From Octopus vulgaris (Eukaryota): a stretch of 64,000 bases of DNA. Shown here piece by piece: positions 915-46,702 of this stretch. The stretch is taken from contig OX597827.1 in the NCBI GenBank assembly GCA_951406725.2, positions 37,386,001 through 37,450,000 on the forward strand. The letters are read 5' to 3'. The translations under genes were made by a program, and so were the position numbers. Within the stretch, counting starts at the first letter, position 1, and every line of letters starts with the position of its first letter. The notes beneath the pieces are model-generated. The model ran no database searches and was not told the origin of the DNA. It worked only from the letters and a program-made list of their open reading frames with translations.

Positions 915-1235
915 ATTGCAGCGTGGAAGGTGTTTGTAAGCCATTTAAGAAACACACAAAAACCGTTAGATTCACTTCAACATTTAAATTTAATTTGCCA
1001 AAATATATTCCTCGCTTTGAGACCGCGACCTGTTCACTGACAAAAATATCGTGCTAACAGGTCGCGGTCTCAAAGCGACGAAAATATTTTGACAAATTAA
1101 ATTTAAATGTTGAAGTGAATCTAACGGTTTTTGTGTTTCTTAAATGGCTTATAAACACCTTCAACGCTGCAACTGTTTTCGTTCCAGCACACGATCTCAG
1201 ATCAAGTCACTTGCTATGCATGTACATCTCTGTAA
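915..1235. mobile_element. Fold-back element with ~120 bp arms and a one-sided tail; putative non-autonomous PLE derivative
   Basis: 915-1034 is the near reverse complement of 1056-1172; same family at 44344-44615; hammerhead-like core GTGAACA on the minus strand at 1031-1037. Confidence 0.7.
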
Positions 1236-1341
1236 CTATATATATATTATATATATATATATATATATATATGTATATTGGTAAAAACAGTAAGATAACA
1301 AAAGAAAGAAAGAGACCTCAATATTATGTAAATAGAGGAAA

Positions 1342-1735
1342 TCTTTATATATAAAAGTGAGGTTGTGTGTCTGTCTCCTACGATTTAGATTCCTAACTAC
1401 TCCCACATTTTGCGGTGCAGTTTAACCAAAACCGGGTATCTTATAGTCGTGATTCATATCGAGACCGTCTGGGTATTAGCGCGCGTCTACGATGAGTCTA
1501 CGATTTAAAAAAAATTTACCATCAATTTTTCCCATTTTTAATCCATTTTTGACATATATAAGGGAAGTAACTCTCTAAAATTTATTATTAAATCTCAGAA
1601 CGTAAAAAGCTACAGTAACACCCCTCCCCCTTTGTGGTTAGCCATATTGAGATGGCTATTATACTTTACATCTCTAAAAATGCTTATATAATTATTTCCC
1701 TTACAAACCCGAACAACGCCGGGCGATACTGCTAG
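1342..1735 (+). mobile_element. Non-autonomous Helitron
   Basis: A|TC 5' end, imperfect subterminal hairpin CCCGAACAACGCCGGG, CTAG|T 3' end, no target-site duplication (TSD). Confidence 0.75.
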
Positions 1736-2230
1736 TAGTTATATAAAAGTTTTACAATGATGTCACTGTTTTATAAGAAAGAATCTTATTCTTCAAAGGA
1801 GAATCAATTATTTCATTGTAAATATATAAATACATTCCCTCATCATTATTTTGTGTCTATTTTTCATGCTGGCTTATTGGGCATCAGATGCTGCTCATTT
1901 ATGTCATTTAGGCTTGGTTTCTCTAGTTTCTAGCTGCTCTTCCTATCACCAGCCACTTAACAGATTCTACTGAATGTTTTCTTGTAGCACCAGCGCTAGA
2001 GAGGTAACTATGTCCTTAGTGAAACAGGACAAAAGGTACCTCTCAAACTTGCACTTTCTCCACTCATTAACCATCCATTTTTCACAAACTCACACACACA
2101 TACGTATATTCTAGGTTCTATGTTGCTACCCTACTAAAAACCTTTATTTTTAAACTAAAGATAGGAAAAGTTTAATGGCTGAGTTGATCAGAACATTGTT
2201 GCCATTATCGAGTTTTATAAAGATTCACAG

Positions 2231-2252
2231 ATCAAATCCAGTCCAGGATCAT
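2231..2252 (+). CDS. Putative 22-nt microexon of RING-finger gene copy 1 (IKSSPGS)
   Basis: ttcacag|ATCAAATCCAGTCCAGGATCAT|gtgagt; splice sites conserved in the paralog at 17042-17063; phase compatible with downstream exons. Confidence 0.5.
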
Positions 2253-2585
2253 GTGAGTATCAAGTCATAAGACACTTGATTGGTTGGGGATTTAACCAAC
2301 AACAATATAATGCTCATAGTAACATTATTTATACAATATGTTTATAAGATGAGACTGAAGAATTTCATCTTATTAACAAACGTTACTTGATTTGTCATGG
2401 CATTATCTTAATTGATATTTGCTTGATCCTGCTATCATTTAGTTATAATCTTAAGAGCAGTTCCAGAAATTTGATTAATGAAATGTTTTTTCCTCATCAC
2501 ATAAATATTATAGTATTATTAAATCATTCCATCACCACTACTTTAGTTATGATATCAGGAAGTGAACTTATATTTTTTTGTGTAG

Positions 2586-2598
2586 ATGGCAACCCTAG
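2586..2598 (+). CDS. Putative 13-nt microexon of RING-finger gene copy 1 ((Y)GNP(R))
   Basis: tgtag|ATGGCAACCCTAG|gtaatg; phase 1 to phase 2 joins the 22-nt exon in frame to the RING exon. Confidence 0.45.
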
Positions 2599-2687
2599 GT
2601 AATGTTCCTGAGTTACAGTAATATTAATAGTGACAATAATGTTGATATTGTAATTAACACATGTAAAGAAATTTTTTTATTTTTCAG

Positions 2688-43156: not shown

Positions 43157-43637
43157 ATGCTCTGCATCAAAATTCAAAATCACCGGTGATCTGGCTATGT
43201 CCACTGGGGAGCTTGACTTCCCTTGTCAGTCGTTAAAATACTGCTTCTATAGCTCGAGTTATTTTGACTCTTATTTCTAGCAATGCTGGTATTACTTAGT
43301 AGTCTCTGTCACGTTAGTGACGTCTGTAAATTTGCCACCCTAGTTTTTACTTTTACCGTTTTTGAAATCAGCGTATAAGTTCAACGGTTTTCTTATAAGC
43401 TGACAGGGTGAGGTGGGTTTAACCCTAGGCACGGTAAGAGCCACCTATGAGAATTAAGATGCTCTGCATCACACTTCGAAATCACCGGTGATCTGGCTAT
43501 GTCCTCTAGGGAGCTTGTCTCCCTTGGCAGTCATTAAGATAGTGCTTCTGTGGCTATTGAGTTGTTTTGACTCTTATTTCTAACAATGATGGTACTACTT
43601 AGTACCCTCTGTCACGTTAGTGACGTCTGTAAATTTG
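43157..43637. repeat. Direct repeat of ~180 bp with a period of ~300 bp
   Basis: ATGCTCTGCATCA..ATCACCGGTGATCTGG..GTCACGTTAGTGACGTCTGTAAATTTGC at 43157-43336 and 43459-43637. Confidence 0.85.
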
Positions 43638-43796
43638 CTTTTAAGTATTTAAATTGCTAATAAGCCACCCATATTATGTATATATATATATATGAATAAA
43701 AAATGGAGTTAACGCAGGCGTAATCAAATATTTTTACTTTCGACACATGTTTCGAAAATTCCACTCATCTATTTATATATATATATATATATATAT

Positions 43797-44060
43797 ATAG
43801 AATGGTTGTATACTGTCAATCTAACATGAACGTGACAGTAGGGGGTACACCACCGCTGTTTAGCCCTAGGAAGCATCGACGCCTCCTGATGGCTTTGACA
43901 AATTTTTCCTGTGTCCTTATATACATCAGGAGGCGTCGATGCTTCCTAGGGCTAAACAGCGGTGGTGTACCCCCTACTGTCACGTTCATGTTAGATTGAC
44001 AGTATACAACCATTCTATCGCCCCACCACCGTACATATCTCTACGAGAGATTTAGAAATT
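43797..44060. repeat. Perfect 95-bp inverted repeat with a 32-nt loop and ~42-nt one-sided tail inside (TA)n
   Basis: 43797-43891 is the reverse complement of 43924-44018; mirror-image ORFs appear in the track. Confidence 0.95.
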
Positions 44061-44343
44061 ATATATATATATATATATATATATATATATATATATATAT
44101 ATATATATATAAAGCTTTGAATTGTACAACAATGCACTATAACACAAACAATGGGTTATATACCTGTTGTAATTTAGTCATCCATAGTCTGATATGATAT
44201 TTGGGAATAAAATTCCTTCTTCGGATATTCTTAGATATTCTTTACAAACAATACACAAATCTTCAAGCGAACTACAATACTCTCCTATATATATATATAT
44301 ATATATATATATATATATATACACGCACGCACACACACAAACA

Positions 44344-44615
44344 GTTGCAGCGCGGAAGGTATTTATGAGCCATTTAAAAACACACAAAACCGTTAGATTC
44401 ACTTCAACACTTAAATTTAATTTGCCAAAATAGTTTCGTCGTTTTGAGACCGTGACCTGTTCACTGACAAAATTCCATGAAATTTAAATGTTGAAGTGAA
44501 TCTAACGGTTTTTGTGTGTTTTTAAATGGCTTATAAACACCTTCCACGCTGCAATTGTTTTTGTTTCAGCACACGATCTCATATCAGGTCACTTGCTATG
44601 CAAGTACATCGCTGT
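44344..44615. mobile_element. Second copy of the 915-1235 fold-back family; hammerhead-like motif on minus strand at 44421-44471
   Basis: Minus strand TTTGTCA-GTGAACA-gGTC..GAC-GAAA-ctat-TT-TGGCAAA; inversion junction differs from the first copy. Confidence 0.7.
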
Positions 44616-45540
44616 ATATGTATGTGTATATATATATATATATATATATATATATATATATATATGTGTGTGTGTGTGTGTGTGTGTGTGTGTGTGTGTG
44701 TGTATAAATATATATATATAATTTCAGCAAAACAATTTAGATTCAAAAGAATATGGTACTTAACTTAGATGCACCAGAATTTTTTATGGTATTAACCATA
44801 AAATTATATGGGGTGATTATAACCAAGAAAAAAAATATATATATATACATACATACATACACACACACATACATATATAGGCGCAGGAGTGGCTGTGTGG
44901 TCAGTACCTTGCTTACCAACCACATGGTTCCGGGTTCAGTCCCACTGCATGATACCTTGGGTAAGTGTCTTCTACTATAGCTTTGTAAGTGGATTTAGTA
45001 GACAGAAACTGAAAGAAGCCTGTCGTATATATATATGTATATATATATATGTGTGTGTGTGTGTATGCACGTGTGTTTGTGTGTCTGTGTGTGTCCCCCC
45101 AACGCTTGACACCAATGTTAGTGTGCTTACATCCCCTTAACATAGCGATTCACCAAAAGATACCGATAGAATAAGTACTAGGCTTACAAAGAATAAGTCT
45201 TGGGGTCGATTTGTTCGACTAAAGGCAGTGCTCTAGCATGGCCGCAGTCAAATGCCTGAAAGGAATAAAAGAATAAAAGAATATATTATATATATATGTA
45301 TATATATATATATATATATATATATATATATATATATATATATATGTATGTATGTATGTATATATACAAATACATATATATATATATGTATATATACATA
45401 TACATATATATATATATATGTATATACATACATATATAAATATATAAATATATATATATATATACATGCATACATACATACACACATGCATACATATATA
45501 TATATATATATATATATATATATATATATATATATATATA

Positions 45541-46702
45541 GGTGAGAAAGTTGGAGTGTGAAAGCACGTGGTTGAATATATAGAAAATAGTAAAAAGTGA
45601 AAAAACTACAGAAGGCTTGTTTAAAAAGGTTAAAAAATATATATTTGAGTCATTATGTCTGAAGAATGTTATAAATTTTTTTCATACAATGACAGTTTTT
45701 GAAGAAATGACCGGTTTCGCGTTCAGCTTTTCAAATTTCTTACATCGTTATGTTTACGTTGAGAAGTGTGAAGAAAAAGTTCCAGATAAGGGGAGGTAAT
45801 AAGTGATTTCTTCCGGTCTATGGGAGATAATCGCTTAATATTTCTTGCCTTTTTTTGGGAGTGAGTGTCTCTGTATAAGAATGTTGGAATGGTTAAGTTT
45901 GGGCTTGTATTTTTCAATGGAGAATGTTTCCTTGTTTAGTCTAATTTGTGTTGGTGTTCCGATAGCACATTGGTAAAATGGAAATATTAAAAATTGTGGT
46001 AGTAGTTGCTTTGCGCATTTCTCAATGTGCTCACTAAAGGGTATCATTCTGTATTCTGGGAATGCAATCTGTTGTCGATGCAGTGTGCATCTACGTCGGA
46101 GTGATAGTCCCGTGGACCCCACGTAGTTTTGGTGGCATCCCGAGCATCTTATGACATAAATTATGTTTTCAGAGGCACAAGTAAAATTAGATTTGATCGT
46201 GAATTTCTGTCCCTCTTTGAAGAGGAATTCTGATCCTTCTAGCAGGTTTGGACATGTTGCACAGTTCGGTCTACCACATTTTTTTACTTTTGCATCTGTA
46301 ATTTCAGAAAACAATTTTGCCTTTGTGAGAATCTTTTTAAGTGATTTAGGTTGTTTGTAGCTTTTAATGATTTGGTGTATGTTTAGAATTTTCTTAATAT
46401 TTAATATAGAAATTTAGAAAAAGGCAAGAAATATTAAGAAATATTAAGCGATTATCTCCCTTACACCGGAAGAAATCACTTATTACCTCCCCTTATCTGG
46501 AACTCTACTTCACACTTCTCAACGTAAACATAACGATGTAAGAAATTTGAAAATTTGAACGCGAATCCGGTCATTTCTTCAAAAATTATGTCATTGTATG
46601 AAAAAAATTTATAACATTCTTCAGACATAATGACTCAAATATATATTTTCTAACCTTTTAAAACAAGCCTTCTGTAGTTTTTTTACTTTTTACTATTTTC
46701 TA
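45541..46702 (-). mobile_element. 5'-truncated Penelope-like element with a GIY-YIG ORF and an inverted 5' copy of its terminal repeat
   Basis: CGRPNCATC..FTCASENIIYVIRCSGCHQNYVGSTG..IFPFY..PKLN; about 45577-45855 is inverted at about 46418-46702; ~35-nt one-sided tail; flanked by (TA)n. Confidence 0.85.
45702..45741 (-). ncRNA. Minimal hammerhead-like motif, U3-A8 core variant
   Basis: AAGAAAT-TTGAAAA-GCtgaacGC-GAAA-CCGG-TC-ATTTCTT with a 7-bp stem I. Confidence 0.6.

Follow-up and report, generated by a model that had tools for sequence, protein, structure and literature searches.

Seven head-to-head inverted repeats with one-sided tails in a 64-kb stretch of the Octopus vulgaris genome, probably truncated insertions of Penelope-like elements

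A stretch of 64,000 nucleotides (nt) of the Octopus vulgaris genome (assembly GCA_951406725.2, contig OX597827.1, positions 37,386,001 to 37,450,000 of the forward strand), in the following called the window, contains seven inverted repeats that can fold back on themselves. They were labelled E1 to E7 in window order, and all positions given below are window coordinates. Each of them consists of two arms and a tail at one side. They are likely 5'-truncated insertions of Penelope-like elements (PLEs) from six families, in which two copies lie head-to-head, and each of them probably stems from one integration event, perhaps with priming at both ends. The elements and their parts are as follows.

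916-1236, plus strand: E1, with short arm 916-1034 (in the loop the unit goes on to about 1055), long arm 1056-1172 and 64-nt tail 1173-1236
Across both arms of E1: hammerhead, split and mutated
9809-11089, plus strand: E2, with short arm 9809-10244, long arm 10622-11060 and 29-nt tail 11061-11089; (TA)n on both sides
Between the arms of E2: loop with the endonuclease end and a microsatellite-rich 3' region
10258-10383, plus strand: endonuclease end of E2, the last approximately 38 codons of a PLE GIY-YIG domain, then stop codons
10881-10925, plus strand: hammerhead of E2, type I minimal, with C3-G8, C at position 4 and T/T at the base of stem II
9941-9985, minus strand: mirror copy of the E2 hammerhead
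12326-12725, plus strand: E3, with short arm 12326-12509, long arm 12567-12692 with a deletion of about 47 nt, and a tail of about 31 nt to ATATAT (provisional)
12375-12476, minus strand: hammerhead of E3, in the short arm, with a long stem II and G12 changed to A
28274-28286, no strand: left target duplication of E4, 13 base pairs (bp)
28287-28559, minus strand: long unit of E4, with tRNA-like head 28487-28559, (AAT)n and 36-nt tail 28287-28322
About 28371-28412, minus strand: hammerhead skeleton in the long unit of E4, cleavage triplet missing
28560-28561: junction of E4, 2 nt that separate the two +1 positions
28562-28826, plus strand: short unit of E4, with tRNA-like head 28562-28634, (AAT/GAT)n and the matching 3' body minus stem II, no tail
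28827-28839, no strand: right target duplication of E4; the CysRS stop codon (28912-28914, minus strand) lies 73 nt further
43800-44059, plus strand: E5, with identical 92-nt arms 43800-43891 and 43924-44015, 32-nt loop and 41-nt tail 44019-44059; (TA)n on both sides
44338-44603, plus strand: E6, with short arm 44338-44421 continuing to about 44470, long arm 44477-44561 and a tail of about 42 nt
44422-44470, minus strand: hammerhead of E6, in the short arm, with a G3-C8 core
45541-46706, minus strand: E7, with 36-nt tail 45541-45576, long arm 45577-45846, truncated open reading frame (ORF) and short arm 46436-46706; (TA)n on both sides
Short-arm junction of E7: 10-nt duplication
45702-45741, minus strand: hammerhead of E7, type I minimal, with a U3-A8 core and a 7-bp stem I
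45838-46413, minus strand: endonuclease of E7, the end of the linker with CX4CX2C and a complete GIY-YIG domain that has CxxC and two His and forms the C-terminal part of the ORF

Seven inverted repeats at these places had been claimed in an earlier note, which was made from the sequence alone, and all of them were found. Simple repeats (9.6% of the window) were masked before self-BLAST; the unmasked self-BLAST was dominated by microsatellites. After masking, E1 to E7 were all recovered as local inverted repeats with 118-763 bits, and the best local match in 20 local shuffles had 50 bits. The identity of the two arms was 100% for E5, 99.3% for E2, 95.9% for E7, 95.7% for E1, 91.7% for E6 and 91.5% for the inner part of E3, and for E4 it was 91% in the body and 81% in the heads. 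One arm extended past its partner by 64 nt (E1), 29 nt (E2), about 31 nt (E3), 36 nt (E4), 41 nt (E5), about 42 nt (E6) and 36 nt (E7). The one-sided extension of about 30-60 nt described in the earlier note was thus present, with 29-64 nt, but in seven elements instead of six, and it lies outside of the repeat coordinates that the note had given. The end of the E3 tail is provisional, because ATATAT is the sole mark of its boundary. The tails contain few G, i.e., 20 G versus 64 C were counted in a pool of five tails, from which E3 (uncertain) and E6 (redundant) were excluded.

Nine of the 14 outer ends were at most 6 nt away from a pure TA tract of at least four repeats, compared with 0.7% of random unmasked positions and 5.8% of any positions. 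The target of E6 is a mixed TA/CA/TG tract, and the target of E4 is plain AT-rich DNA without a microsatellite. E1 and E6 belong to the same family, and six families are present in total. E2, E3, E4, E5 and E7 had no DNA similarity to the E1/E6 family or to one another in the self-BLAST, and further copies of these five were not found within the window. The gaps between successive elements are 9389, 2076, 16051, 15347, 543 and 1690 nt; five of the seven elements are located in two clusters of about 3 kb, and the region 43.1-47.2 kb consists of stacked insertions into TA tracts. About one element per 9 kb had been reported, and the arithmetic is right (seven in 64 kb), but the elements are clustered, the window was selected for them, and, because of the insertion stack, the density cannot be extrapolated.

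The coding sequences in the loops were analyzed next to the arms. Two elements had been said to enclose GIY-YIG coding sequence, and this applies to E7 with a complete domain and to E2 with only the last approximately 38 amino acids (aa). In E7, 170 aa reach from the linker between reverse transcriptase (RT) and endonuclease (EN) via CX4CX2C to the whole GIY-YIG domain, and they are followed by a stop codon and the pseudo-long terminal repeat (pseudo-LTR). The domain matched Pfam PF01541 with E=0.004, which is under the curated cut-off. Among 1429 longer candidates, all seven matches to E7 had identities of 40-72%, and the best relative, with 72%, was the RT+EN protein P0001. Five of the relatives were scanned; all five had an RT domain, and four also had a Pfam GIY-YIG domain at the C-terminus. 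A PLE endonuclease profile was built from seven proteins and searched against 2622 six-frame fragments of the window. Matches were obtained in E7 (4e-81), in another element at 15930-16238 (5e-13) and, for the last 38 profile positions, in E2 (1.3e-6), while no match was found in the fragments of E1, E3, E4, E5 and E6. The endonuclease end of E2 is 43% identical to the C-terminus of E7.

A CX2-5CxxC linker together with CCHH marks the Neptune and Nematis PLEs (PMC8557442; here and below, citations refer to the consulted parts of the papers). Such a linker is present in E7 as CX4CX2C, and the truncation of E2 lies downstream of the linker position. Judged from these motifs, the E7 endonuclease is of the Neptune/Nematis type; Neptune and Nematis are indistinguishable here because the RT has been truncated away. 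PLEs of the Naiad/Chlamys type, which have an N-terminal endonuclease and no canonical hammerhead, were also considered and rejected, as the endonucleases of E2 and E7 are C-terminal and followed by the hammerhead.

The pseudo-LTR of PLEs has been described to carry a minimal type I hammerhead in which A9 is followed by an extra base and stem III is palindromic (PMC4209133). This hallmark of PLEs had been overlooked in the earlier note. A hammerhead descriptor matched in five of the 14 arms (E2L, E2R, E3L, E6L and E7L) with p=0.005-0.01, based on 200 shuffles per arm (0.005 for E2 and E6, 0.01 for E3). All matches read toward the outer end, and none was found on the opposite strand of the 14 arms. 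Hammerheads were therefore detected by the descriptor in four of the six families; E4 has a defective skeleton, and E5 has none. At positions 3-8, E2 and E3 have C-G, E7 has U-A and E6 has G-C, and the swapped core pair G3-C8 is shared by E1 and E6. As a natural hammerhead variant U3-A8 is known (PMC3088659), and for G3-C8 only an engineered, partly active variant was found in the papers searched (PMC11167929, PMC3884650). The predicted cleavage sites are located 52-140 nt from the short-arm ends, which is comparable to the 85-92 nt computed from the published Anolis PLE (PMC11167929). Rfam matches to the window were also inspected; the 150 of 265 that were listed were of the miRNA type and others on simple repeats or palindromes, all of them below the gathering score, and they were regarded as chance matches.

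The orientation is set by an ORF or a hammerhead in five of the six families, and in these the arms are head-to-head with the 3' ends outward. When E1 is compared with E6, the start of the tailed arm is shifted by about 50 nt within the unit and the end of the untailed arm by 5-6 nt. E4 is framed exactly by the 13-bp target duplication (28274-28286 and 28827-28839); the chance level for it was estimated from AT-rich control pairs, 62 of 20000 of which had a common string of at least 13 nt. At nine of the 14 ends a target duplication is unreadable because the ends sit in (TA)n. The variable junctions of E1 and E6 and the 13-bp duplication of E4 show that these are not DNA transposons with fixed ends.

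Taken together, the endonuclease sequences in E2 and E7, the hammerheads in four of the six families and the defective one in E4, the variable junctions and the 13-bp duplication bear out the PLE origin that had been proposed, with E5 unproven. A PLE origin is very likely for E1, E2, E3, E6 and E7 and likely for E4. For E5 it is only somewhat favored, based on the architecture; this element could belong to a hammerhead-free PLE clade.

The following mechanism could generate the two arms. The GIY-YIG enzyme would cleave a (TA)n or AT-rich target in both strands, and both cut ends would prime reverse transcription on the element RNA. One end would prime at a distal start site and yield the long arm with the tail, and the other end would prime at a proximal site 30-60 nt upstream and yield the short arm. 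The proximal site would often be an internal TATAT stretch, which could pair with the target or be cleaved as the target is. Truncated independently, the two cDNAs would be joined at their inner ends, and the long hairpin would be a by-product of integration. For an Anolis PLE it has been reported that the purified protein cleaves AT-rich DNA in both strands and extends both of them, that two internal sites of an AC-rich stem-loop serve as starts of reverse transcription and the sequence separating them forms the tail, and that hammerhead cleavage is dispensable (PMC11167929). Which of the arms extends further 5' varies: it is the untailed one in E1 and E6 and the tailed one in E2 and E7, as would be expected from two separate truncations. 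At the short-arm ends, microhomology with the (TA)n flank was observed, with 6 nt in E2, 7 nt in E7 and 3 nt in E5. The sum over the seven elements was 19, with E3 counted as 1 and E6 as 0, and P was 3e-6 to 3e-4. This would fit a nicked (TA)n end that anneals there, or cleavage of the element where it resembles the target.

E4 differs from the other elements in its composition. Its arms are units of about 270 nt, in each of which a tRNA-like head is followed by (AAT)n and a 3' body. In a tRNA-geometry scan of the window, these heads ranked first and second, with 19 of 22 points and a null mean of 0.1 per window, and their A box, anticodon loop and B box are spaced exactly as in a tRNA. Neither ARAGORN with default settings nor Rfam, which was run on the left half of E4, called a tRNA at the heads; with relaxed thresholds ARAGORN gave 20-270 genes, most of them spurious, and the E4 heads were not among the 20 obtained at -ps80. 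The +1 positions of the two heads face each other over 2 nt, and only one unit has a tail. The heads differ more than the bodies, i.e., 14 of 73 versus 10 of 115 positions are mismatched (Fisher p=0.044), and three of the 14 head mismatches touch CG. The body contains the sole skeleton of core, stem II, GAAA and stem I in the window, which was obtained in one of 300 shuffles; the cleavage triplet is missing from both arms, and in the short arm stem II has also been lost. T4 runs are absent from the E4 units, as they are from seven of eight control copies of short interspersed nuclear elements (SINEs); the shuffle p was about 0.4, and 20% of random windows lack T4. The 3' end is PLE-like, with the hammerhead skeleton and the tail, and an autonomous partner was not found within the window. 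The simplest reading would be that a transcript of RNA polymerase III (Pol III) was copied twice to its 5' end by the PLE machinery, which makes E4 a candidate for a PLE-mobilised SINE. In a literature search no report of such a SINE was found in the parts of the papers covered; Repbase, Dfam and the O. vulgaris repeat library were outside of this search.

Several alternatives to a PLE origin and a number of observations that weigh against the interpretation given above have to be considered. That the palindromes are artefacts of the assembly or of read fold-back is very improbable: palindromic PLE structures are reported to cause assembly trouble (PMC8557442) and the arms of E5 and E2 are almost perfect, but five of the seven elements have 4-9% arm substitutions as well as indels, the window has zero N, and tails, strand-consistent hammerheads and a target duplication are not expected from read fold-back. 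Non-autonomous DNA transposons, i.e., TA-targeting miniature inverted-repeat transposable elements (MITEs) or Helentron-type elements with asymmetric inverted repeats, in which a neighbouring fragment or the region of a 3' hairpin would pass for the tail, would be conceivable above all for E5, the perfect 92-nt arms of which are each bordered by TA and have neither a hammerhead nor a coding match. Small hairpins in the tails of E5 and of E1/E6 and the unrelated short fragments that are common between TA tracts here (e.g., 1279-1345) point in the same direction. Yet in E1 and E6 both the inner and the outer junctions vary and a tail common to both extends beyond one arm, whereas terminal inverted repeats with fixed junctions had been named as the sign of DNA transposons; the loops of E2 and E7 code for a PLE endonuclease instead of a transposase, and the E5 tail is C-rich and G-poor like the PLE tails. 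The duplication of E4 has 13 bp, a size that is not known from the common cut-and-paste superfamilies. The arms of 84-437 nt are also much longer than the short asymmetric repeats of second-type Helitrons (PMC8969392), and an origin of some elements from DNA transposons is therefore improbable. On the side of the observations that weigh against the PLE reading, the full descriptor failed in nine of the 14 arms, among them E1, E3R, E4, E6R and E7R, and it was tuned after the motifs had been spotted by eye, the first version matching E7 only and being relaxed twice. For the stretch of E2 that was examined, and among the 150 listed of the 265 whole-window matches (E<=10), Rfam gave no hammerhead, and for E5 neither the descriptor nor the endonuclease profile matched. 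RT sequence has not survived in any of E1 to E7 according to the six-frame profile search, only the E1/E6 family has two copies in the window, and the E1 tail is, with 64 nt, longer than the published 30-40 nt. Against priming at both ends stand the short-arm ends with a microhomology of at most 1 nt in E1 and E4, about 1 nt in E6, and 1 or 5 nt in E3, depending on one gap, as well as the start of the Anolis enzyme in vitro at a position without homology to the cut DNA (PMC11167929). The near-identical arms of E5 and E2, and features common to both arms, namely the absent triplet in E4 and one base specific to E1, agree equally well with a single template that was copied.

The last point leads to a second route within a PLE origin, by which the second arm would arise by self-priming (fold-back) of one cDNA or from an antisense template, and the endonuclease would trim one arm at a TATA-like site. 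Self-priming was proposed for rotifer PLEs from palindromes at the junctions (PMC3846280), and the tail has been attributed to resolution by the endonuclease (PMC8557442). The arm identities of 100% in E5 and 99.3% in E2, the 3 nt that are missing alike from both arms of E4, and the TATAT stretches with which the short arms of E2 and E7 end, and which would be natural cut sites, agree with it. In E1 and E6, however, the untailed arm holds 5' sequence that is missing from the tailed arm, so that a later central deletion would be needed, and the divergence of 19% in the heads of E4 versus 9% in the body is also not in its favor. Self-priming is thus a serious but less probable explanation, and priming at both ends is slightly preferred over the other PLE routes. 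For E4, two independent, ordinary SINE insertions in head-to-head orientation, or a PLE 3' end with a captured tRNA-like piece that was truncated there twice, would be further explanations. Another head-to-head pair of a tRNA-headed SINE, of other origin than E1 to E7, is present at 21107-21468, the E4 heads are more diverged than the bodies, and the PLE 3' regions in the window are microsatellite-rich like the (AAT)n of E4, all of which speaks for these explanations. However, a single 13-bp duplication frames both units of E4, the 2 nt in its centre hold no target remnant, both 5' ends are at the tRNA +1 position and only one tail exists, whereas the pair at 21107-21468 has a 45-nt spacer and 78% identity. 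Both explanations together are less likely than not, but with a single locus a captured tRNA-like piece keeps a fair probability.

The earlier note had also regarded the elements as a possible large source of double-stranded RNA (dsRNA) for editing or siRNA pathways. Predicted folding of either strand gives perfect helices of 19-343 bp, and an ungapped version of the published 50-mer test (PMC5625713) was applied as a measure of dsRNA potential. Near-perfect hairpins were found for 3255 of 63951 50-mers (5.1%). The fold-back elements contributed 1364 of them (2.1%), i.e., 776 in E2, 326 in E7, 138 in E5, 80 in E1, 44 in E4 and none in E3 and E6, and 1891 (3.0%) were in microsatellites. No such 50-mers occurred elsewhere, and the fold-backs are therefore the only non-microsatellite source in the window. 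The larger contribution of the microsatellites weighs on the proposal, and the selection of the window bears on any density of dsRNA. It is plausible that loci of this kind, when transcribed from either strand, would form long dsRNA and be substrates of adenosine deaminases acting on RNA (ADAR), and they might likewise feed siRNA pathways.

Exceptional hyper-editing and near-perfect dsRNA potential were reported for octopus and frog, with a value of 4.4e-3 for O. bimaculoides; the potential of the frog was explained by a palindromic repeat, and the octopus repeats were left unannotated (PMC5625713). In a lizard, Penelope is massively edited, with more than 40,000 sites (PMC5625713), and in animals and in squid it is a general phenomenon that young repeats and repeats in 3' untranslated regions are edited (bioRxiv 2020.01.19.911685, PMC9068888). 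No paper linking octopus Penelope elements to editing was found in the literature search. The fold-backs are a concrete candidate source of the octopus dsRNA potential, which can be checked with existing editing data. A tRNA-headed SINE transcribed by Pol III that parasitises PLEs instead of LINEs (long interspersed nuclear elements), ends in a pseudo-LTR with a cleavage-dead hammerhead and inserts as a full-length head-to-head dimer with a one-sided tail, might together with the PLE fold-backs even be the main source of dsRNA and hyper-editing in octopus besides the microsatellites, but this is a tentative suggestion that may well be wrong.

Next to E4 lies the gene for CysRS (28912-31110, minus strand), an intact ORF of 732 codons for the cytoplasmic enzyme with an intron-free coding sequence. 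E4 starts 85 nt past its stop codon; ATTAAA, a possible poly(A) signal, is located directly after the stop codon and before E4, and the next one is at the far end of E4. The closest named relative is from Argonauta hians (87% over 734 aa), and other named animals reach at most 65%, which by itself marks the host as an octopod cephalopod. Just upstream of the ATG a splice-acceptor-like stretch was seen, and one named cephalopod is among the best 120 matches. The gene may be an old retrogene that took over from its parent gene.

Further features of the window were observed. An eighth PLE insertion, which is not inverted, lies between two long (TA)n tracts at 14090-16238 (minus strand); it contains a fragment of the Cys linker and GIY-YIG at 15930-16238 (minus strand), a CA-rich 3' region and, at about 14190-14225, a decayed hammerhead-like motif that was seen by eye and fails the descriptor. 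An 88-nt copy of its 3' end is present at 54358-54445. At 43159-43680 (plus strand), between TA tracts, a 302-nt unit forms a partial direct tandem of 1.6 copies with 88% identity, within which a degenerate type I hammerhead was noted at 43439-43498; Rfam found no tRNA or hammerhead family at 43420-43520. This tandem is a candidate for a pseudo-LTR tandem or a non-LTR retrozyme. A GIY-YIG fragment at 32364-32645 (plus strand; Pfam E=0.002) did not match the Neptune-type profile and presumably resembles the endonucleases of Hydra-clade PLEs. Short unique fragments between TA tracts, unmatched elsewhere in the window, are located at 1279-1345, 44112-44285, 44715-44830 and 46935-47187, and they are possibly truncated 3' ends of TA-targeting elements. 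At 294-578 a 107-nt unit is repeated 2.7 times with TA runs flanking each copy, and a short (AT)n-centred palindrome outside of the E1 to E7 set is found at 60490-60575.

The element at 1352-1737 ends in a GC-rich hairpin followed by CTAG, and we take it to be Helitron-like. A duplication of 1.1 kb (2136-3263 and 16948-18081, about 80% identical) carries a C3HC4 RING-finger frame in each copy (2599-3027 and 17411-17824). In addition, a decayed mariner transposase (PF01359; 36818-37642), an integrase-core fragment in a GC-rich block (50841-51431) and an RT/zf-RVT fragment of a LINE (7697-9105) were found. Two frames on the minus strand, 57634-58143 and 59400-59945, look by eye like exons of prostanoid-type G protein-coupled receptors, and they had no meaningful Pfam match.

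For PLEs, an inverted copy at the 5' end, a tail of 30-40 nt and a bias for (TA)n have been described (PMC8557442), and 30 active Penelope families with 329 recent insertions were reported for O. vulgaris (PMC13282606). The fold-back architecture is the published standard form of a PLE insertion (PMC8557442, PMC3846280, PMC4209133), and the main finding is therefore ordinary; since the window also holds PLE insertions without an inversion, the fold-backs are one of several normal outcomes. They can easily be mis-filed as MITEs, SINEs or pre-miRNAs. The TA microhomology at the untailed end offers a genome-scale handle on the origin of the tail and of the inversion, which was left open in published work, and E4, if the reading given above is true, would extend SINE-type parasitism to a third class of retroelements.

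Neptune and Nematis PLEs resemble E7 in the C-terminal GIY-YIG, the CX2-5CxxC linker and CCHH, and the whole set in the pseudo-LTR hammerhead, the inverted 5'-truncated copy, the one-sided tail and (TA)n (PMC8557442); unlike in typical members, only 3' ends are kept here, one tail has 64 nt and one family has G3-C8. The Adineta vaga PLEs Pen2a, Pen2 and Pen3a share inverted pseudo-LTRs, an optional tail of 31 bp and a target duplication, which is 8-10 bp long (PMC3846280). Solo pseudo-LTRs of that rotifer move unrelated sequence in trans (PMC3846280), which is a likeness to E4; the rotifer insertions lie outside of microsatellites and the cargo was host DNA, whereas E4 has a tRNA-like Pol III head in both arms and a 13-bp duplication. 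In Schistosoma, paired minimal hammerheads lie 100-700 bp apart on opposite strands, and the Cercyon PLEs of S. mansoni share with the octopus elements such opposite-strand pairs, the extra base after A9 and U3-A8 (PMC4209133); in contrast to those pairs, the octopus motifs are tied to measured arms, tails and targets. DIRS elements, which have an internal complementary region and a tyrosine recombinase and make no target duplication, would fit less well, as E4 has a target duplication and E2 and E7 code for GIY-YIG; no search aimed at the complementary region was made.

The SINE-like SMalpha elements of Schistosoma and metazoan non-LTR retrozymes are similar to E4 in being non-coding, about 300 nt long and equipped with a type I hammerhead (PMC8490949, PMC7229834), but retrozymes form direct tandem arrays with cleaving ribozymes, whereas E4 is an inverted dimer with a PLE-type tail and without a cleavage triplet in either arm. 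The palindromic Harbinger repeat of Xenopus and the lizard Penelope have in common with the fold-backs that they fold on themselves and need no neighbour to form dsRNA (PMC5625713); these two are described as ADAR targets, which for the octopus fold-backs would be a prediction. Helenus, Ajax and Cassandra resemble E4 in having a tRNA or 5S Pol III head on the ends of a non-LINE retroelement; they use the LTR machinery with its primer-binding site and polypurine tract, and E4 would be their PLE counterpart (PMC10886601).

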